Source of the DNA: a virus
Lineage: Duplodnaviria; Caudoviricetes
Length of the DNA stretch: 64,000 bases
IMG/VR virus record: IMGVR_UViG_2524614838_000004
Coordinates: 1 to 64,000 of that record
Reading direction: 5' to 3' (one strand)
Below, piece after piece: positions 878-62,208 of the stretch (positions are counted from its first letter, which is position 1; the number at the start of each line of letters is the position of its first letter). Below the pieces are notes generated by a model, which had not been told where the DNA came from, did not search any database, and saw only the letters and a list, made by a program, of their open reading frames with translations. Made by a program: the position numbers and the translations under genes.

Positions 878-928
878 ATGCGCATTTGTGAGTATATGCT
901 AAAATGGTATCAGTATTTGACACACTAA
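878..928 (+). pseudogene. 5' stub of an interrupted host gene (MRICE..., YlmC/YmxH-like start) running into phage DNA; candidate attL near 885-900
   Basis: Strong RBS TAAGGAGG at 863-870, ATG 878, 16-codon ORF ending head-to-head with the integrase stop; family assignment rests on five residues only. Confidence 0.5.
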
Positions 929-2499
929 ATTTTCGGATAAATTTTAAGGTTAAAATCTGGGATTTCTTTCTTGGTTCCGCGCTTTTCTTTTGAATATTCA
1001 ACCTTTTCCAAGACCTCCTTTAATAAAGTATTTTGTTCTTCTGGTGTTAACGTATTAAAATTATCTAGTAAAAACTCTATTTTCGGTATTAGCAACGTTC
1101 TTTTTTTCTCAAAATCCTCTTGGCGTTTTTGTTGTTTAAGTAGTTCATCTAGTGCATTTTGTGCGGAATTTATTTCCTCTCTTATTTTTTCCACCCTATT
1201 CTTCAGTGTATCTGCATCATAGACCCCTGTCTCAAATGCCTCATATGCCTTGTCTAACCGTTTTTTGTGCTTATCTATAAAATCCATAGTCTCATTTATT
1301 TTGGTCTGCGTAATAGCTATTCCAACAACTGAAAGTTGAGGAGAGGAAATGGAGATGCGATAATCAGCAAGCCAAGATCTCAATGCTAACATTAATTTAT
1401 CAATTACATCATCAACAGCGGCTCCGGGCATATCGCATTTCTTACATAAGAACAATTCTTGTTTAATTCTTCCACTAACTGGACGGCGAATCATTGTATA
1501 CCCACAGCCTTGGCATTTTAGAAGTCCAGCAAGAGGATTTTTGATTGTTCCACTTAGCCAAACAGGGGGTTTAGATCGAGAATTGAATACTTTTTGTGCC
1601 AGATCAAAGGTTTCTTTATCAATGATAGGTTCATGTAATGCAGGAAAATAATCACAATCTTTGTTGATTGGCGTAGAATTTTTAACAGTGCCATTAGTCA
1701 TGACCTTGACTATTTTGCGTCTGCCAGCTGGTATTTCTCCAATATATGTTCGATTAAGCAAGATATCACGTATGACGTTATGAGCCCATGTCTCACTATA
1801 CCTAGGCTTAATAAACATTTTGTCCAGTGTTTTACCGATAGCAGTAACACTGATAGGTTTATTATAGGTTTCTGGAGTTCCTGCAGTATACATAGCATAA
1901 ATCAAACGCACAATTTCTGCTTCTTCGGGAACTATTTTAAGGCTATAGCCTTTTTGTCCCTTTAGTTTATAGCGTTCATACCCAAATGGTGCTTTTCCCC
2001 AAGGCCATTTCCCTTCCTTGGCAGTGTTGTATTTTCCATCTCGTAATCGCCTACGAATTGTTTTATATTCGCGCCGGCTCATGAAAAGTCCAAATTCAGC
2101 ATACTCCTCATCAAACTCATTGTTGGGATCGAAGGTTTTCATCGGAGTAATTATCTTTGTATTGCCATATTTGAAAGTTTCCATAATGAGCCCCTGGTCC
2201 CTTGTATCTCCACGAGCCAAACGTTCCAGTTCTACGACTAGAACACCATTCGGTTGATCGTTTTCAATATCGGTAAGCAAACGCATCATTTCTGGCCTTG
2301 CGGCAATAGTTTCTCCGGACACAACCTCGCGATAAACTTTAGAAATTGAAATTCCTAAATGGTTAGCGAGCTCCTTCAAACGGTTCTCATGTCTAGCTAA
2401 AGTCTCGCCTTCTCCGTGTGCCTCTGCTTCTACATCTTCACGTGACTTGCGTAAGTACATATAATACTTACCATTGGGATCTAGCGTCAATTGTATCAT
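925..2499 (-). CDS. Large serine recombinase (prophage integrase)
   Basis: YLRKSRED catalytic motif, VVELERLARGD, recombinase domain, CxxC...CxxC zinc ribbon, coiled coil; start set at the RBS-preceded ATG 2499. Confidence 0.95.
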   Translation of the reverse strand: MIQLTLDPNGKYYMYLRKSREDVEAEAHGEGETLARHENRLKELANHLGISISKVYREVVSGETIAARPEMMRLLTDIENDQPNGVLVVELERLARGDTRDQGLIMETFKYGNTKIITPMKTFDPNNEFDEEYAEFGLFMSRREYKTIRRRLRDGKYNTAKEGKWPWGKAPFGYERYKLKGQKGYSLKIVPEEAEIVRLIYAMYTAGTPETYNKPISVTAIGKTLDKMFIKPRYSETWAHNVIRDILLNRTYIGEIPAGRRKIVKVMTNGTVKNSTPINKDCDYFPALHEPIIDKETFDLAQKVFNSRSKPPVWLSGTIKNPLAGLLKCQGCGYTMIRRPVSGRIKQELFLCKKCDMPGAAVDDVIDKLMLALRSWLADYRISISSPQLSVVGIAITQTKINETMDFIDKHKKRLDKAYEAFETGVYDADTLKNRVEKIREEINSAQNALDELLKQQKRQEDFEKKRTLLIPKIEFLLDNFNTLTPEEQNTLLKEVLEKVEYSKEKRGTKKEIPDFNLKIYPKI

Positions 2500-2544
2500 C
2501 TCCTTGTTAAATGTACGTAAAAAAGGGCATAAAAATAACACCCA

Positions 2545-23231: not shown

Positions 23232-24149
23232 ATGCTTTTCTATGAATATTTTAAAAGTTGGTTCGAAGCATACAAAGCCGGAACGGTGGCAGAAGTGACA
23301 TTGTCAAAGTACCGGATGACATATATGCGGCTGAAAGAACTGGCGCCTACACTGGATTTAAAAGTAATAGGGCGCAGGGAGTATCAGCAATTAATAAATG
23401 ACTATGCGCTTACGCATGAAAAGCAGACAGTCATGGACTTTCATCGTCAGCTGAAAGCGTGTCTCCTGGACGCTTACGACGAAAAGTTAATAGAGCGGGA
23501 CCCTACGCGGAAAGTAGCAATCCGGGGGAAAATGCCGGCAGAAAAGAAAATGAAATATCTCAACAGAGATGAACTGGAAAAACTGCTGAATGTGTTGCCG
23601 CTTCATCCTGATCGGGTCGGATTCGATTGGCTTATATTGCTTCTGGCTAAAACGGGACTAAGGTTTGCGGAGGGGTTAGCATTAACGCCGAATGATTTTG
23701 ACTTTGCCAATAAAAAGATAAGGGTAAACAAAACCTGGAATTATAAATCTGCAAATGGAAGATTCATGCCTACCAAAAATCAATCCTCTGTAAGGGAGGT
23801 AACAATAGATTGCGGTTTGGCAGAACAGTTTGAGCAGTTGATCAAAGGATTTCCGGCAGATGAACCGTTTTTCTTTGATAAGGCAGACCGGATATTTAAT
23901 TCTACCTTGAATAATTATCTGGAAAGATATTGCAGAGAGGCAGGCGTGCCGGTGATATCCGCACATTGTTTAAGACATACACACGCTTCCGTCCTGCTTG
24001 CTGCCGGTGTGTCAATTCCGAGCGTTTCTAAAAGATTAGGACATTCGAACGTCACTACAACGCAGGATACATATATCCACATCATACGGGAGCTGGAGGA
24101 AAAAGATAAGAATAAAGCAATGGACTGCATGTCCAGTTTGTGCGGATAG
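23232..24149 (+). CDS. Tyrosine recombinase 1
   Basis: KTGLRFAEG, HCLRHTHAS, RLGHSNVTTTQDTY (R-H-R-H-Y). Confidence 0.95.
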   Translation: MLFYEYFKSWFEAYKAGTVAEVTLSKYRMTYMRLKELAPTLDLKVIGRREYQQLINDYALTHEKQTVMDFHRQLKACLLDAYDEKLIERDPTRKVAIRGKMPAEKKMKYLNRDELEKLLNVLPLHPDRVGFDWLILLLAKTGLRFAEGLALTPNDFDFANKKIRVNKTWNYKSANGRFMPTKNQSSVREVTIDCGLAEQFEQLIKGFPADEPFFFDKADRIFNSTLNNYLERYCREAGVPVISAHCLRHTHASVLLAAGVSIPSVSKRLGHSNVTTTQDTYIHIIRELEEKDKNKAMDCMSSLCG

Positions 24150-34379: not shown

Positions 34380-35417
34380 ATGAATGGACAAACTGTTAAA
34401 GCACAGGTTATCAATAATATTATTGTTGCTATGGCAGGGCATGTGGCGAAAGATGTTCTGGATATTCTTCATCAGGTGATTGTAAAAGAATTTGTAAATG
34501 TCAATATGGAAGAGATAACAACCCTCCCGGCAGAGTACCAGAATGATACGGATCAGAAGAATAAGTATATCATTCAGCTTTTCATCGTCAAGAAGAAAAT
34601 CAAGGATAATACAAAGGAAGCGTATCTTAGTGCCATTAAGCGTCTGATTACCCTGATTGATAAGCCATTGGACCGAATAGAGGAATCCGATATCAGCTAT
34701 TATCTGTCCTGGTATGAGAAGCGGAATATTAATGCCGGCGGTAAGAAGAATCAGGCCGTGACCGTGAATAATGAAAGACGTTTCCTGTCAGCATTCTACA
34801 CCTGGATGAGGAAGGAAAAGTTAATCAGTGACAATCCTGTGGAGGCAACAGATCCGCTGAAAACAATTCGAAAGCCGATTGATTATTTTAAACCAGAAGA
34901 GATGGCGAAGATGAGGGACGCATGCAAGAATTCTAGAGATCGCGCATTAATTGAAGTGTTGCGGAGCACCGGGGCCAGAGTGGGAGAGTTGGTTGAGATC
35001 ACCCTTGACCAGATAGACTGGAATACCGGGGATATTATGATTCAGGGGGAAAAGAATGACAGGTATGAGCCTATATTCTTAGATGATGAAGCGCGGTATT
35101 ATTACAGGCAGTATCTGGATTTAAGGAATGATGAAAGTCCGTTTATGTTTCCACAATGTAGGGCACCTTATTGGAAAATGTCAACGTCTGGAATCCGGAG
35201 CGTTATAAAAACCATTGGCAATCGAGCAAAGTTGAAATGCCGAGTGTATCCTCATAAATTGCGTAAAACTCTGGGAATGAGCCTTAAAAACAAGGGAGTG
35301 GACCTTGGCACCATTCAGGAGATTTTGAGGCATTCCAGTCCGTCAGTAACGGCTATTTATTACGCTCAATCTACACCGAATACATTAAGAAGTGTGAGAG
35401 AGAGGTGTGCAGGATAA
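34380..35417 (+). CDS. Tyrosine recombinase 2 (with N-terminal SAM-like domain)
   Basis: STGARVGE, PHKLRKT, ILRHSS..VTAIY. Confidence 0.9.
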   Translation: MNGQTVKAQVINNIIVAMAGHVAKDVLDILHQVIVKEFVNVNMEEITTLPAEYQNDTDQKNKYIIQLFIVKKKIKDNTKEAYLSAIKRLITLIDKPLDRIEESDISYYLSWYEKRNINAGGKKNQAVTVNNERRFLSAFYTWMRKEKLISDNPVEATDPLKTIRKPIDYFKPEEMAKMRDACKNSRDRALIEVLRSTGARVGELVEITLDQIDWNTGDIMIQGEKNDRYEPIFLDDEARYYYRQYLDLRNDESPFMFPQCRAPYWKMSTSGIRSVIKTIGNRAKLKCRVYPHKLRKTLGMSLKNKGVDLGTIQEILRHSSPSVTAIYYAQSTPNTLRSVRERCAG

Positions 35418-42309: not shown

Positions 42310-42888
42310 TTAAATCAAGAATAAATGTTTCTGTATTGCTTCTTCGACTTGTTTCGGTTGTATACCGATATATCTTTGAGTAACGGCGGTACTTGAATGT
42401 TGCAGGAGTTGCCGAACGATTTCAATGTTGTAGCCATTGCTGTTATAAATGTCGGTAGCATAATACTTGCGGAAGCTGTGAGAACCGATATTTTCAAGGC
42501 CTAGAGATTCACAAGCCAGTTTTAAATGCTTTTGTATGGCTCTTTCGCTTATGTCAAACAGCTTTGCACGGCTTGAAATGCCGTTATCAAGCGCATATTG
42601 CAAGATGTAATTATACAGTTCGACCGGTACAGTAAAATTCCTTTGCTTTTTAGTTTTCCCCTCTGTGATGTCAAGGCGATAGCGTTCGCCGTCTTTGATT
42701 ATGTCACAGGCATGGAGCCGCAGCACATCGCCTATACGTAAGCCCAGGTTGGCTTCCAGCACTAAGGCAGTAGCGATCCGGTTGTTTGGCTTACAGATGG
42801 TTCCGTCCTTGGCCGTAAAGCCGGACCGGATAGTGTCAATGATAAGCTGATATGTTTCTCTGGTTAGTGCAACTGTTTTTTTATTCAT
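42310..42888 (-). CDS. Tyrosine recombinase 3 (catalytic domain only, resolvase-like)
   Basis: NLGLRIGD, GSHSFRK, LLQHSS..VTQRY; promoter TTTACA-17-TATTAT at 42952-42980. Confidence 0.9.
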   Translation of the reverse strand: MNKKTVALTRETYQLIIDTIRSGFTAKDGTICKPNNRIATALVLEANLGLRIGDVLRLHACDIIKDGERYRLDITEGKTKKQRNFTVPVELYNYILQYALDNGISSRAKLFDISERAIQKHLKLACESLGLENIGSHSFRKYYATDIYNSNGYNIEIVRQLLQHSSTAVTQRYIGIQPKQVEEAIQKHLFLI

Positions 42889-51532: not shown

Positions 51533-53200
51533 ATGGATTTCCAGGAACACCGGGAAATAATCAAAAAATTAAAGCGGCAGATTGAATCACCGCCTTCTTA
51601 CGACATTCTAAACATTCTGTTATCAGAACTCCAATATACAATGCAGGATAATCCGGATTTGCCCGTTGAGGAACGGGATTTCATCATGACCTATTCCGGG
51701 TTTATCAAGAAATGGGCCGTCACTAGATTTGTCCAGACAATGGATACCTGTTGGGATGATCTGTACTGGAAAACATTGCATTTTGAGGCTCCGTATTTAT
51801 TCGAATCGTATCTGATTTATCTGGAGAAGAATCGGGAAGCGAAGGATCGCTTTTATTTACCGAAACGCAAGCAGCTGAATAAGCATGGATTGATTCAGGC
51901 CATGCAGGATCTGGAAGATGATAGGCTGGATATCTTAAGCATATCAATGCCACCTGGGACGCAGAAAACGACCTTGGAGAAGTTCTTTGCCTCATGGGTA
52001 ATTGGCAAGCACCCAGATGATTTCAGTTTGTTCTATTCCCATAGTGGCGATATTACCAGAATGTTCTATGACGGTATTTATGACATCACTACAAATTCAG
52101 ATGAATACACCTGGAGCGAAATATTCCCAGACGTGAGACTTGAAAGTACGAATGCCAAGACTGAGACAATAAATTTTAATAAATACAAACCTTTCCCCAA
52201 CATACAGTGTACGTCCATTGGCTCAAAGAATGCCGGTAAAGTTAGGTGTAACCGGTACCTGTATTGTGATGATCTTATTGGCGGCATTGAAGAAGCTCTG
52301 AATAAGGTTCGGTTAGATAAACTTTGGTCCCTATACAGTGTGGACGGTAAACAGAGAAAAATGGACGGCTGTAAAGAGATTCACATAGCGACGAGGTGGT
52401 CTGTCCATGATGTGATTGGACGAATAAAAAACCTATATCAAAAAAGCGACAGAGTGAGATTTATTGAGGTTCCAGATATTGATCCAGTGACTGAGGAATC
52501 AAACTTTGACTATGAATACAATGGCTTTTCAGTAGCTTTCTTTAATGATCAGGCACTGGCTATGGACGAAATTTCTTATAAGTGTCTTTATAAAAGCCAG
52601 CCTATTGAACGTGAGGGTCTGCTATATCATGAAGATGAATTAAGACGATACTTTACACTTCCGCAGGGAGAACCTGATGCCTTACTTGGAATATGTGATA
52701 CGAAGGACAAAGGAACAGACTTTATGTTTCTTCCTTGCGTGGCTCAGTACGGAAGTGATTATTACTGCCTGGATTGTGTTTGTGATGATAATTCTGACTA
52801 TGGAATTCAATACGAAAGGTGCTCCCAAATAATAGTGGATAATAAGCTGCAGCAGTGCCAGTTCGAAAGCAATAATGGCGGTAGCCGGGTAGGGTACGAA
52901 GTGAATAAACTGGTGGAGCAAAAGAATGGCCGTTGTAACATCACCACTAAATTCACTGATAGCAATAAGGAAACAAAGATTATCGTAAATGCGGACTGGG
53001 TAAAGAAACATGTTTTATTCAAAGATTCTTCTCTTTACAAAGCCAAAAGTGATTATGGGGTTATGATGAGTTTTCTGCTTAGTTATTCAGTGAAAGGTAA
53101 GAACGTTCATGATGATGTACCCGATGGCTGGGCGCAGTTTGCATTGTTCACACAAAATATGGGTGGCGCTAAAGTCACAGTTTTCCAGAGACCGTGTTAA
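51533..53200 (+). CDS. terL: Terminase large subunit
   Basis: SMPPGTQKTT Walker A-like, YCDDL, IATRWSVHD, CDTKDKGTD, FESNNGG, HDDVPD. Confidence 0.9.
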   Translation: MDFQEHREIIKKLKRQIESPPSYDILNILLSELQYTMQDNPDLPVEERDFIMTYSGFIKKWAVTRFVQTMDTCWDDLYWKTLHFEAPYLFESYLIYLEKNREAKDRFYLPKRKQLNKHGLIQAMQDLEDDRLDILSISMPPGTQKTTLEKFFASWVIGKHPDDFSLFYSHSGDITRMFYDGIYDITTNSDEYTWSEIFPDVRLESTNAKTETINFNKYKPFPNIQCTSIGSKNAGKVRCNRYLYCDDLIGGIEEALNKVRLDKLWSLYSVDGKQRKMDGCKEIHIATRWSVHDVIGRIKNLYQKSDRVRFIEVPDIDPVTEESNFDYEYNGFSVAFFNDQALAMDEISYKCLYKSQPIEREGLLYHEDELRRYFTLPQGEPDALLGICDTKDKGTDFMFLPCVAQYGSDYYCLDCVCDDNSDYGIQYERCSQIIVDNKLQQCQFESNNGGSRVGYEVNKLVEQKNGRCNITTKFTDSNKETKIIVNADWVKKHVLFKDSSLYKAKSDYGVMMSFLLSYSVKGKNVHDDVPDGWAQFALFTQNMGGAKVTVFQRPC

Positions 53201-53214
53201 GGAGGTTTTACTAT

Positions 53215-53802
53215 ATGGCAAAAACATTGAGGAATCCAAAGAAAGAAAACTTAAGTCTATGGAATTCTTATCATAGCATGAAAAAACGCTGTTTAAATCC
53301 TAATTGCAAGCGCTATAAAGACTACGGTGGAAGAGGAATCAAGATATGTGAAGAATGGCTTAAAGGCTTTGATGCATTTGCAGATTGGGCAAAAGCAAAT
53401 GGATACAGGAACGGATTGACCATAGAGCGAAAAGATGTGAATGGCAATTACGAGCCGGATAACTGTATATGGATCACAAAGCAACAGCAGGCTTTTAATA
53501 AAAGGGATTCAATATTTGTCACTTATCGAGGACGGACAAAAGATTTAATGGTGTGGTGTAATGAATTAGGGCTGACGTATGATACATTTCATAACCGTAT
53601 TACTTGTGGGTGGTCCCCTGAAAAGGCATTTGAAAGCCCTGCTAACGGAAAATCTTTTGCTCAAGTGTGTAGGGAGCATGGTTTAAAACCAGCAACGGTT
53701 AGAGATAGAGTTTACAAATTGGGTTGGGACTTAGAAGTTGCATTGAATACGCCAAGTGCAGGCCTGGGAGCCAATCAGCAGACTTATATGGGGAGGATTT
53801 GA
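53215..53802 (+). CDS. HNH-family homing endonuclease
   Basis: MKKRC.NPN..RYKDYGGRGI.ICEEW...TIERKDVNGNYEPDNC. Confidence 0.85.
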   Translation: MAKTLRNPKKENLSLWNSYHSMKKRCLNPNCKRYKDYGGRGIKICEEWLKGFDAFADWAKANGYRNGLTIERKDVNGNYEPDNCIWITKQQQAFNKRDSIFVTYRGRTKDLMVWCNELGLTYDTFHNRITCGWSPEKAFESPANGKSFAQVCREHGLKPATVRDRVYKLGWDLEVALNTPSAGLGANQQTYMGRI

Positions 53803-55299: not shown

Positions 55300-55388
55300 A
55301 ATTTCCCACATTTCCCATTTCATATATGTTAAAATGATATTGTGGTATAGAATGAAAAGAAAGCGTTATCCTAGAGATGGCGCTTTTT
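55300..55388 (+). promoter_or_regulatory. Probable activator-dependent late promoter and hairpin
   Basis: TTTCCCACATTTCCCATTTC repeat then TAAAAT -10; AAGCGTTATC/GATGGCGCTT hairpin. Confidence 0.45.
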
Positions 55389-59456: not shown

Positions 59457-60571
59457 TGGCATTGCAACCATTTTACACCGTTACAGATTGGCAGAACTTG
59501 CCATCGCAGAAAACAGCACTAAATCGGACTAATTTACTTCACACGGAAAATGGAGTAAAGGAACTGGATAACAGGACCGTACAGCTGGACGCAAGCAAGG
59601 CAGATAAATCCCTGGTTAATGCTTTGGTAAAAGACATTACGGTGGACGCTGACACCGGAATATTAACAATAACCTATCAAAATGGTACGGTTAAGACTTA
59701 TGATCTGGATATTGAAAAGGTAGTAACAAACTTTGATATCAACGATGATAATGAGTTAGTGCTTACCCTGGCAGACGGTACGCAGAAGATCATTGATCTT
59801 ACCAGATTTGTTTATTCGGTAGCAAGTACGGCCACTATCTCCATGACGATCACTGACCGAGTCATGCGGGCGACTATTGTTGATGGTTCCGTAACCATGG
59901 CAAAATTAGATGCTGCTATTCAGACAGAATTCCGGCAGTATATGCTTGACGCTCAGGCCGCCCGTGATGCCGCCCTTCAGTATCAATTATTTGCTAAGCG
60001 GTACACGCTTGGAGATCAGAGTTTTCCAGGGAGTGAAATAGATAATGCTAAATATTATTACGAGCAGACGAAAACCGCAGAGGAAAATGTAATCCAGAAT
60101 GCTCAATCCGCTGCAGAGAGTGCCGGCACGGCTACGGAGCAGGCCACGATTGCAACGCAAAAAGCCACAGCTGCTACAGCTGCCACGAATACGGCAACCG
60201 CAGCGGCACAAACGGCTACGGAGAAAGCCAACGCAGCAGCAGCCAGTGAGCAGGTGGCAACACAGAAAGCGGCAGCTGCAGGGGCCAGCCAAATAGCGGC
60301 AGCTCAGAGCGCCACTGAAACCTCTGATAGTGCGTTACAGGCCAAACGATATGCAATAGGCGGCGTGGTGCCGGAAGATCCGGAAGATAATGCAAAATGG
60401 TATTATCAACAAACAAAGAATCTGAAAGAACAGGTGGACGCGGCGGCTAAGATATCGGTTCCACATTTTTATGTGGATCCTGTCACTATGCAGCTCATGA
60501 GTGATACGGAAGCCAAGGGTATGAGGTTTTGGTACAATAATGGAAAGTTTTATGGGGAGGTGACAGCATAA
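59456..60571 (+). CDS. Tail fibre / upper-baseplate shaft protein
   Basis: Ala/Thr/Gln-rich coiled coil, repeated NAKYYYEQ/NAKWYYQQ. Confidence 0.75.
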   Translation: MALQPFYTVTDWQNLPSQKTALNRTNLLHTENGVKELDNRTVQLDASKADKSLVNALVKDITVDADTGILTITYQNGTVKTYDLDIEKVVTNFDINDDNELVLTLADGTQKIIDLTRFVYSVASTATISMTITDRVMRATIVDGSVTMAKLDAAIQTEFRQYMLDAQAARDAALQYQLFAKRYTLGDQSFPGSEIDNAKYYYEQTKTAEENVIQNAQSAAESAGTATEQATIATQKATAATAATNTATAAAQTATEKANAAAASEQVATQKAAAAGASQIAAAQSATETSDSALQAKRYAIGGVVPEDPEDNAKWYYQQTKNLKEQVDAAAKISVPHFYVDPVTMQLMSDTEAKGMRFWYNNGKFYGEVTA

Positions 60572-61443
60572 TGGCTGAAATATATGGAACAATCGGGATC
60601 CGCCCTATGGGGGAATATAATCCTGATACAAAATATGAATTGTTGAATTTAGTCAATTATGACGGTAGCAGCTATGTAGCTCATACAGAACCGCCGTTGG
60701 GAACTCTGCCATCGAATACGGCATACTGGCAGGTATCAGCCCAGGGAACCAGTAAAGCTACGGCTGACAGCGTAGGAACGGTAAAGCCGGACGGAGTAAC
60801 AACGGAGGTTAGCGCTGATGGTACATTGAGTGCTAAAACTGCCTCGCAATCCACTGCTGGTATGGTGAAGGGTAGCCAAGGTATTACGGTAGGGACGGGC
60901 GGCGCAATTGATGTGAATACGGCCTTTACGCAGGCCACAGAACTGGCCAATATTATAGCCGGGGAAGCAATTGCGCAGGTGCTGGGGAAAATATCTAAGG
61001 CTATTGCAACAACAATGAACTTAGATCAAAACGCCTTACTTAAGAACATGCTGACTAATATGGATGCCAATGATCAGAATAAGATCAATACCGCTGCATA
61101 TGTACATACTCTTACGGAGCGCATTGGCATGAGTACAGAGCTGACTGCAGGTGCCAATTTAACCGCAGCCCTTAATGCACTAAATAGCAATTTACCGAAC
61201 CTAATCATAGCACAATCACAAACGCTTCCGGAAACAGCGGTACCGGCTAATGGTTATGTTGATATTTCGTACACCCCTACGCCCATAAACGGATATACTC
61301 CATTTCAGTATTCGCTTTGGTCTGGAGGGAATCCCTCTGTCGGTATTGTGGCTATCACATCCAGTTTGGTCAGGTTACGTAATTTTTCTGGTGCATCAAT
61401 AAATGCCACACCAATTATATCGGTGACATATAAAAGGGCCTAA
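60571..61443 (+). CDS. Receptor-binding tail fibre with exchangeable C-terminus (tip 1 currently expressed)
   Basis: GEYNPDTKYELLNLVNYDGSSY carbohydrate-binding-like start; ALNSNL crossover motif. Confidence 0.8.
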   Translation: MAEIYGTIGIRPMGEYNPDTKYELLNLVNYDGSSYVAHTEPPLGTLPSNTAYWQVSAQGTSKATADSVGTVKPDGVTTEVSADGTLSAKTASQSTAGMVKGSQGITVGTGGAIDVNTAFTQATELANIIAGEAIAQVLGKISKAIATTMNLDQNALLKNMLTNMDANDQNKINTAAYVHTLTERIGMSTELTAGANLTAALNALNSNLPNLIIAQSQTLPETAVPANGYVDISYTPTPINGYTPFQYSLWSGGNPSVGIVAITSSLVRLRNFSGASINATPIISVTYKRA

Positions 61444-61725
61444 ATGCTCATTTTTCGACCCAAGATCCCCATGTATTGACCCTCGTTCTTATCCAAAATC
61501 TAGGGGCCACCTCTAATGAGGTAAATTTTTGGATCGCGAAAGATGATGAGTCAATAAACATTGTTTCTACAATGCCGTGGAACGCAGCAGGAAGATTAGT
61601 GCAACTACTTGCTGCCCTGTATACAGAAAGAACATTGATGATGGTTGGAATTTCATTCAGATTTCCAGCATACTCACCTCTGTTTACTACCTTTGCGGAA
61701 ATATTGTTTAAATTGCTATTTAGTG
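61178..61725. mobile_element. 548-bp invertible tail-fibre segment bounded by 17-bp perfect inverted repeats
   Basis: CACTAAATAGCAATTTA at 61178-61194 and its exact inverse at 61709-61725. Confidence 0.9.
61448..61723 (-). other. Silent alternative tail-fibre tip (91 aa, pyocin-knob-like)
   Basis: Start-less open frame LNSNLNNISAK...GNLNEI...CTNLPAAFHG...QKF...WIRTRVNTWGSWVEK*, in frame with the repeat. Confidence 0.85.
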
Positions 61726-61797
61726 AAGAAAAGAAACTTGTAAATCACAGTCCCATAAGGGGCTTATTTTTATGCTCATCTGAGCGGAAAGGAAATT

Positions 61798-62208
61798 ATG
61801 AGTAATATAAGAATCGAAAGAATTAAGTTTGGTACTCAGGAATTCGATCTGATCGCAGCCGGGGTTAATCTTGGAGAAAGTGGTGGAACCATTGCCTTTT
61901 TGAAAGGGTCCGCTTCTTTCGAGTCCATCGAAGCTGCCTTGAAAGAAAATGGAAGCATAGTACAGATCGGATTATCCGGAGAGCCGGACTGGACCCGGTC
62001 TGACTTAGTTTATGCGGGCAAGCTGGCAAAACAGTCCGATCAGGTTATCGGCACGGCAGAAGATGGTGTGACCTCCATCACAGCAGATGTCATAACCGCC
62101 ACTTTTCGCACACCGGATCTGACCGAAACCGTAAAGGAACAGGCTGCAGAGATCAAATCATTAAGAGCAACTGTTGACACATTAGTATTATCAAGTTTGG
62201 AGGGATAA
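61798..62208 (+). CDS. Hypothetical tail-assembly protein
   Basis: RBS; position before an XkdX-like gene. Confidence 0.65.
   Translation: MSNIRIERIKFGTQEFDLIAAGVNLGESGGTIAFLKGSASFESIEAALKENGSIVQIGLSGEPDWTRSDLVYAGKLAKQSDQVIGTAEDGVTSITADVITATFRTPDLTETVKEQAAEIKSLRATVDTLVLSSLEG

Follow-up and report, generated by a model that had tools for sequence, protein, structure and literature searches.

In the Gin, Cin, Pin and Min systems of Mu, P1, e14 and p15B, respectively, an adjacent serine recombinase acts on 26-bp sites with a 2-bp crossover and a Fis-dependent enhancer. Almost all well-studied fibre switches are, to our knowledge, serine-invertase systems of enterobacterial phages. The shufflon of R64 and other IncI plasmids uses the tyrosine recombinase Rci, and multiple inversions at sfx sites fuse convergent C-terminal open reading frames (ORFs) to the constant pilV gene. 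Conservation around the sfx crossover is one-sided, and the segments are contiguous with rci adjacent to them; we know of no palindrome in the middle of these segments. The Rin shufflon of Bifidobacterium prophages, for which reads demonstrated inversion, has an XerD-like tyrosine recombinase and an 11-bp site, rix (Mavrich et al. 2018, PMC6109161, a paper that covers Min, Gin and Cin as well). For the bifidophages 689b-1 and Bb423phi2, inversion without a flanking recombinase was found and action in trans was proposed (PMC6109161). Among the programmed inversions predicted across bacteria, genes for tail fibres are over-represented (PMC9881135). The subject of this work is a 0.5-kb segment at positions 61178–61725 of a 64,000-nt stretch of prophage DNA (the window; positions 1 to 64,000 of IMG/VR virus record IMGVR_UViG_2524614838_000004), in which a tail-fibre gene ends between two inverted repeats. 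Coordinates refer to the window, ‘window-equivalent’ coordinates carry the same numbering past its edge, and G000 is the 6.38-Mb genome of the Lacrimispora-type gut or sludge bacterium carrying the prophage. It is highly probable that the locus belongs to a real programmed-inversion system. With more reserve, we favour the reading that the segment is an invertible cassette of the working type within a tail-fibre shufflon, and that the tyrosine recombinase encoded at 34380..35417 is the most likely enzyme. The type of switch is already known; the recombination sites, the dispersed spare tip cassettes and the distant recombinase are unusual.

The arms of the 17-nt inverted repeat, located by a repeat finder at 61178..61194 (left, plus strand) and 61709..61725 (right, minus strand), are 100% complementary and have 514 nt between them. 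With up to two mismatches allowed, the 17-mer occurs at just two places in the window, against 0.01 expected from dinucleotide shuffles, and two matches were reached in 0 of 100 shuffles. The left arm, which includes the 14-bp core TAAATAGCAATTTA at 61181–61194, lies in frame within the plus-strand tail-fibre gene 60571..61443, where it reads A-LNSNL-PNL... The 290-aa product as assembled, which gives weak PHROG matches to tail-fibre and virion proteins, is constant to residue 203, followed by LNSNL (residues 204–208) and then by the expressed tip 1a (variable part 61195..61440), which bears no relation to the tips that relatives have in this position. Read from the right arm, the minus strand encodes S-LNSNL-NNISAK...WGSWVEK*. 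This frame stays open between 61744 and 61448 without an ATG, GTG or TTG upstream of LNSNL, and the hidden tip 1b that it encodes (61448..61723, minus strand; 91 aa and a stop) is therefore start-less. Counted from the L of LNSNL, the expressed and hidden tips have 87 and 91 aa, respectively. Their stops, TAA at 61441–61443 and TCA at 61448–61450 (TGA on the minus strand), are 4 bp apart and fall in an inter-tip junction (61440..61453). A sequence-only reading had described this anatomy correctly, including the coordinates, frame and complementarity of the LNSNL-coding repeats, the length of each tip and the spacing of the stops; the internal dyad TAAA-TAGCAA-TTTA that it named is present.

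As in Rin, a constant N-terminal receptor-binding part (here 203 aa) is fused to interchangeable tips of ~90–100 aa (here 87 and 91 aa), every tip has a short asymmetric crossover site in front of it, and a change of host range is the expected outcome. Unlike in Rin, the site is 14 bp long (TAAATAGCAATTTA) and differs in sequence from rix, and the tips are paired convergently and meet at a palindrome. The locus resembles R64 in having invertible segments with two convergent C-terminal ORFs for one constant gene, a tyrosine recombinase and one-sided conservation of the site, but serves a phage fibre rather than a plasmid pilus adhesin.

The 14-bp core is present in eight copies in G000, against 0.12 expected. 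In the genus set (Lacrimispora, 49 genomes; 36 in one comparison of homologues), the exact 14-mer was found in 35 of the 49 genomes, with ~108 copies against ~9 control hits, mostly as convergent pairs 270–710 bp apart. In the outgroup of 399 genomes from other genera of the same family it is at background, with matches in 13 genomes and a convergent pair in just one. Cassettes of genomes and IMG/VR proviruses, about 40 (35–42) in all, share one layout. A long open frame runs up to the core, behind which comes a tip of 60–130 aa; on the other side, a convergent tip begins at the inverted core with no open frame before it, and the core precedes every tip. Across ~60 arms from relatives, nothing but the 14-mer is kept without change; the outer flanks can be grouped into several classes, and the tips differ greatly. 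Fibre homologues in 13 of the 36 genomes compared are 69–78% identical, and the similarity ends at residue ~209–212. Since hundreds of codings of LNSNL are possible and the 14-mer is nevertheless invariant, the constraint acts on the DNA.

The core consists of 4–5-bp inverted arms around an asymmetric spacer. Two spacer variants were found, AGTG and AGCG, and the two arms of a pair always carry the same one. Pairs of the AGTG variant, TAAATAGTGATTTA, are present in G000 (3235308/3235952), G016, G020, G022, G023, G012, G030 and G007, and the AGCG variant, TAAATAGCGATTTA, occupies all four arms of both cassettes of G024. The junction between the tips carries a palindrome, AAATGATCATTT, with arms as in the core and a symmetric spacer. 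It was found in 38 of 42 distinct cassettes, with 0, 1 and 2 mismatches in 21, 11 and 6 of them, respectively, and is kept regardless of the stop codons and frames used; 382 control windows taken from those segments all had at least three mismatches. The copy in the window, AAATGCTCATTT at 61442–61453, has one mismatch. The co-varying spacers and the junction palindrome point to a recombination site.

A profile built from the hidden tip and two relatives retrieved 121 cluster representatives among 1.84 billion proteins, in which the domain is mostly C-terminal in proteins of 120–460 aa. P0005 (280 aa) is a fibre with a tip in the expressed position after LNSNL that is homologous to the hidden tip over its whole length; the alignment summary gives 59%. 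A word-indexed protein search with the hidden tip, which covered longer proteins only, gave no match. The plus-strand ORF 61476..61805 overlying the hidden tip had been taken as its mere shadow, and this is upheld: it has no Pfam or other family match and is not a gene, and the conserved frame is the opposite one, which encodes the 121-representative family. An AlphaFold2 model of the hidden tip from its single sequence was unusable (pLDDT 40). With an alignment, AlphaFold gave a model with five strands and pLDDT 89.8, and its best match in the Protein Data Bank is the R2 pyocin fibre knob 6cl6_A (TMq 0.69, rmsd 2.0 Å, 26% identity). Entry 6ct8 is also a best match, and staphylococcal phage baseplate receptor-binding proteins come next; the Foldseek E-value of the knob match is only 2e-3. 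The nearest named Atlas cluster to the tip is ‘pyocin knob domain-containing protein’ (score 0.94). The pyocin-knob-like fold suggested earlier for the hidden tip is thus supported by the model, which superposes on the knobs of R-type pyocins (6cl6, 6ct8); unlike in these, the fibre would be a short one of a Gram-positive phage bearing one 91-aa knob.

For pairs of homologous tips that are both hidden or orphan, dN/dS is 0.05–0.21, with dS exceeding 1 in some pairs. By this measure, the hidden tips are under purifying selection. Low dN/dS would not be expected without any translation, and hidden tips should therefore be expressed at times. Two exchanges of tip position were also found. A 369-bp tip that is hidden in G015:C7 (L072 2514–2882) is expressed in G022 and G031 (L079 3949–4317 and L074 584–952) with 97.3% DNA identity; the flanks are colinear at just 75–81%, and the high similarity begins exactly at the core. 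In the second case, a tip hidden in L033 and L044 is expressed in L058 and L059 (88% amino acid identity, colinear flanks). Judged by these alignments, tips have moved historically at the sites, which is not proof of flipping in this strain.

The sequence-only reading regarded the locus as a two-state switch. This is too small, as the same prophage has two further two-tip cassettes. Three convergent core pairs (at most one mismatch) lie within 25 kb, at 61181/61709 and at window-equivalent 69944/70585 and 85221/85746, and each of the three cassettes brackets two open start-less tips of 87–111 aa. With regard to the multiple inversions of R64, three cassettes have the core in common in one prophage, and tips of relatives stand in differing cassette positions; between-cassette inversion was not observed directly. 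Unlike Rin, which is one block, the cassettes are dispersed over ~25 kb at operon boundaries.

The prophage is ~85 kb long and runs past the window. Window-equivalent 70.8–84.3 kb holds the genes for the portal (Pfam SPP1_portal), scaffold, major head, adaptor, terminator, major tail and tape-measure proteins, and the earlier remark that the phage has no visible capsid genes is an effect of the window edge. The genes are ordered as terL, Dit-Tal-fibre-cassette, lysis, orphan cassette, late-promoter word, and portal to tape-measure gene. This order is also present in G015, G031, G035 and one IMG/VR provirus. Going by this comparison, the split late-gene order is the normal layout of the family, and a strain-specific rearrangement caused by the sites was rejected as its source. 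A late-promoter-like word, TTCCCACATTTCCCATT, heads the Dit-Tal-fibre block at 55303..55319 (plus strand). An identical copy at window-equivalent 70615–70631 (L025 6615) and the outer arm of cassette 2 are 17 nt apart. An extended −10-like box follows the word before both the Dit-Tal-fibre and the portal blocks, and the word also precedes the portal gene in relatives. The late genes form two permuted operons. The presence of the word before both late blocks and near cassette 2 places the orphan cassettes at operon boundaries, and inversions between cassettes could turn whole transcription units.

There is no serine or tyrosine recombinase within 18 kb of the segment, in agreement with the earlier statement that no invertase adjoins the switch. 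The recombinases encoded in the window are one large serine enzyme and three tyrosine enzymes (23232..24149, 34380..35417 and 42310..42888). The gene at 34380..35417 (plus strand), 26 kb upstream of the cassette, encodes a 345-aa XerC/D-like protein with Pfam SAM_4 and Phage_integrase domains; like the XerD-like Rin recombinase, this candidate invertase has no arm-binding domain. The catalytic residues R200, K225, H292, R295, H318 and Y328 are conserved. In G023, G012, G030 and G007, a gene for a 340-aa XerC/D-like recombinase lies between two tip cassettes, in a 2.3–2.5-kb segment with inverted sites at its ends, and the same 340-aa recombinase lies beside a site and tips in G018. A 348-aa relative lies between two cassettes and adjoins a fibre gene in G007, and in G033 a 355-aa relative is encoded ~100 bp away from a site. 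The 345-aa protein is the reciprocal best match in G000 of these cassette-linked recombinases, ahead of host Xer proteins, and has the same SAM-like and catalytic domains. Its orthologues are 85–93% identical in multi-cassette relatives and 41–44% identical in a sister group; at 13 loci, orthologues (41–93%) are located on the same contig 9–33 kb from cassettes. In G077 the orthologue is a pseudogene, and the sites and tips there are degraded.

Since it is the sole G000 member of the clade found in or beside the cassettes of relatives, 34380..35417 is the best candidate for the invertase. The sequence-only reading had favoured a remote tyrosine recombinase, and of the three in the window this is the only one in the cassette-linked clade. 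We put the chance that it is the invertase at about even, and most of the remaining probability falls to some other enzyme acting in trans. The distance is a further difference from Rin, where the recombinase flanks the locus; in the present family, such adjacency is seen in G007, G023, G012, G030, G018 and G033 only.

The other two tyrosine recombinases of the window were set aside. The gene 42310..42888 (minus strand), beside terS, encodes a minimal 192-aa tyrosine recombinase. It is a weaker candidate because of its narrow distribution, being found in only 6 of the 49 genus genomes besides G000; in G015:C7, the 192-aa recombinase is 1.4 kb from an orphan cassette. The 305-aa tyrosine recombinase encoded by 23232..24149 (plus strand) is an unlikely invertase, as its closest matches are integrase-type proteins. 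The large serine recombinase (925..2541, minus strand; 538 aa, with Resolvase, Recombinase and Zn-ribbon domains) is probably the prophage integrase.

In the mechanism that we propose, the constant N-terminal part of the fibre would end at LNSNL, encoded by the 14-bp recombination site TAAATAGCAATTTA, and the two convergent knob-like receptor-binding tips (87 and 91 aa) would lie between two inverted copies of this site and meet at its palindromic relative, which holds both stop codons. Conservative site-specific recombination at the inverted sites would flip the 0.5-kb segment and fuse the other tip to the constant part, changing the receptor specificity of the progeny phage. The two further two-tip cassettes, which are promoter-less and located at operon boundaries, would provide up to six tips via successive inversions. 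The phage's own 345-aa XerC/D-like tyrosine recombinase would act from 26 kb away. We infer this role of the 345-aa protein, as well as the inversions between cassettes, from the comparisons above, and the present copy would still be able to flip.

Several observations weigh against this proposal. The flipped form was not seen in Logan contigs from three isolate runs of this or a near-identical strain, which contained the reference orientation only; contigs drop rare variants, and a single orientation in them is uninformative on flipping. Rin also differs in this respect, as its inversion was seen in reads and here one orientation was seen, in contigs only. A single raw-read run with the species label lacks the prophage, covers ~100 bp at 61747–61851 and is uninformative on flipping. 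In metagenome and viral contigs the flipped junction had no exact match, and this too is uninformative, as the reference junction was likewise absent from metagenomes. With regard to the enzyme, the 345-aa protein is just 24–28% identical to the cassette-embedded recombinases and its gene sits among DNA-modification genes, so that it may have another job. Intact cassettes without a member of the clade are present in G069, G028, G005, G010, G021, G022 and G032, and cassette proviruses of ~40 kb carry only an integrase at the far end. A shared phage backbone could be enough to explain why the 345-aa gene and cassettes are linked. Finally, inversions between cassettes would pass through states in which the lysis or head-tail operon is inverted.

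In one alternative, the cassette flips and the enzyme is another recombinase acting in trans, perhaps a host tyrosine recombinase or one from another prophage or from an RHS-associated chromosomal shufflon (see below). We regard this as fairly unlikely. Cassettes that are intact, have perfect sites and yet come with no member of the Rin-like clade occur in at least nine genomes and in the ~40-kb proviruses, the integrases of the cassette proviruses are heterogeneous, and the near confinement of the sites to one genus is what would be expected of a host factor. Action in trans was likewise proposed for the bifidophage inversion that has no flanking recombinase (PMC6109161). The 689b-1 and Bb423phi2 segment resembles the present one in its size (~500 bp), in carrying a structural gene's 3' end with a small gene opposed to it, and in its short repeat and lack of an adjacent recombinase. 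That case rests on an 8-bp repeat in one phage pair, whereas the present family numbers ~40 cassettes and has a defined site, spacers that co-vary and a clade of candidate recombinases. Against an enzyme in trans, no universal candidate was found, and the recombinases with a physical link to the sites are all of the Rin-like clade.

Individual candidates for such an enzyme were rejected as well. The integrases of the ~40-kb relatives are at the far prophage end with no extra site near them, and the module that these relatives have in common (Dit, Tal, fibres, 136-aa protein and lysin) contains no recombinase. The neighbouring 136-aa, 116-aa, 191-aa and 659-aa proteins have no recombinase features, and an IS110/Piv-type gene is absent from the proviruses and from G069. 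The host Xer-like 351-aa tyrosine recombinase gene is at the maximum of the cumulative GC skew (5,075,561) and has beside it a different palindrome, unrelated to the core. This conserved gene (G000:C1:5074332–5075387; L011 1000–2055) adjoins the gene for ribosomal protein L25, and the palindrome, of 14-6-14 form, lies 260 bp upstream. No B. subtilis-like dif was found. Its placement is the arrangement expected of a single-recombinase dimer-resolution system of the XerS/XerH-like type.

It is also conceivable, and in our view quite improbable, that the cassette is a frozen relic of past tip exchange between co-infecting phages by site-specific or short-homology recombination, and that the present copy no longer inverts usefully. 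The single orientation in all assemblies of the strain and the mismatch in its junction palindrome would fit such a history, and the evidence for movement is between species and not within a culture. However, the 17-nt arms match perfectly, each of the six tips in the three cassettes is an open frame, the candidate recombinase keeps all of its catalytic residues, and the strong purifying selection on the hidden tips of the family requires occasional expression.

Flipping by a serine invertase of the Gin/Cin/Hin type, as in Mu and P1, is very improbable. The sequence-only reading drew on the gin and cin switches, and the analogy holds for the logic of the fibre, in which inversion fuses alternative C-termini to a constant part and switches the host range. 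It fails as to membership: the sites are not gix- or cix-like and no small serine recombinase lies beside the segment, the window's only Resolvase-domain gene being the 538-aa 925..2541. Whereas the sites of those systems have a 12-2-12 structure, only 14 bp are conserved here and the flanks vary. G000 does have one small serine recombinase (200 aa, 2927662–2928096), but this gene is 1.6 Mb away and owns a separate inverton with hix-like sites that look different from the fibre sites; moreover, the cassette proviruses have no Resolvase-domain gene. The system works like a shufflon and is not a member of the Gin/Cin family. At the locus of the 200-aa recombinase (G000:C1:2926162–2929596; L003 1345–2280), two 26-bp hix-like sites, with 12-bp half-sites TGATAAAAAGGT around AC, bracket a 102-bp segment just upstream of the recombinase gene. 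On reading of its sequence, a gene beside it looks like that of a methyl-accepting chemotaxis protein, and the locus is probably a separate promoter inverton. The last alternative, that the repeat and the minus-strand frame arose by chance, has only the short repeat length in its favour and is refuted by the recurrence and conservation of the site, the selection on hidden tips, the 121-member family, the shuffles and the junction palindrome, and its probability is practically nil.

Just downstream of the cassette, 61798..62208 (plus strand) encodes a conserved 136-aa protein of PHROG 12931 (function unknown), which is not a recombinase; homologues with 51–73% identity adjoin the cassette in relatives too. 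The interval from the lysin to cassette 2 (window-equivalent 64011–69941; L025 11–5941) encodes a 659-aa protein without a family match, an SOS-response peptidase (SRAP), a Y-family DNA polymerase (IMS) and a 191-aa membrane-anchored-looking protein. These genes appear to be cargo in the segment that an inversion between cassettes 1 and 2 would turn. Two HNH endonuclease genes, both of PHROG 3377, are located after terL (53194–53802) and in the head-tail block (L025 13488–13991). In an IMG/VR provirus (3300021319_000171; L058 10888–11916), one tip of a cassette is replaced by a 343-aa ORF, and a 7-codon relic of the tip is kept at the right arm; by eye, the ORF resembles an SGNH/GDSL hydrolase. 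Three more exact cores in G000 (C1:4722631, 4725565 and 5046518) have truncated or absent tips, among them a 40-aa remnant 83% identical to a hidden tip of G005, and look like relics of older cassettes.

Outside phages, many cassettes of the genus are found at a chromosomal locus that encodes a small MSSTNK... protein together with a 366-aa protein and an RHS-repeat protein longer than 1500 aa. The copy in G000 is at C1:3235308–3235965 (L099 6309–6966), and others are in L075, L078, L080–L084, L086, L093–L098 and L100. The small protein starts with MSSTNKTSLGLNMWEASDKP..., ends at LNSDL or LNSNL and carries a two-tip cassette. A penicillin-binding-protein gene is on the other side of the locus in L100, where the flank was examined. 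In five genomes, a 340-aa tyrosine recombinase is encoded between two cassettes or beside a site with tips. In RHS-locus proteins of L082 (1093–1126), L083 (3926–3960), L075, L084 and L086, the core is tandemly repeated 21 bp apart, …NSNLDNVNSNLDN…; the LNSNL site there forms part of a heptad-like repeat, which would provide several alternative crossover points. The RHS-locus tips are 76–96% identical to phage fibre tips. Only tentatively, the asymmetric core and the symmetric palindrome might define single-tip modules that move as units within the phage and between replicons, with a pool of knobs common to phages and the RHS locus. Movement within the phage would then proceed via inversions between cassettes at the boundaries of self-promoted late operons.

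No description of the 14-bp site or of the cassette family in Lachnospiraceae was found in the literature searched. The ~40 cassettes, mainly from one genus of this family, provide a 14-bp site, a symmetric junction site, co-varying spacers and a candidate recombinase clade. This makes the family directly testable and potentially a small orthogonal inversion tool. It also bears on the question raised by the bifidophages, whether a non-adjacent recombinase can run a phage fibre switch. Programmed switching of receptor-binding tips is a compact route to a wider host range. If the modular view of the tips is true, one recombination system would diversify both the host range of phages and the targeting of an RHS-associated system, and the sharing of tips, if confirmed, would link phage adsorption and bacterial antagonism via common receptors.

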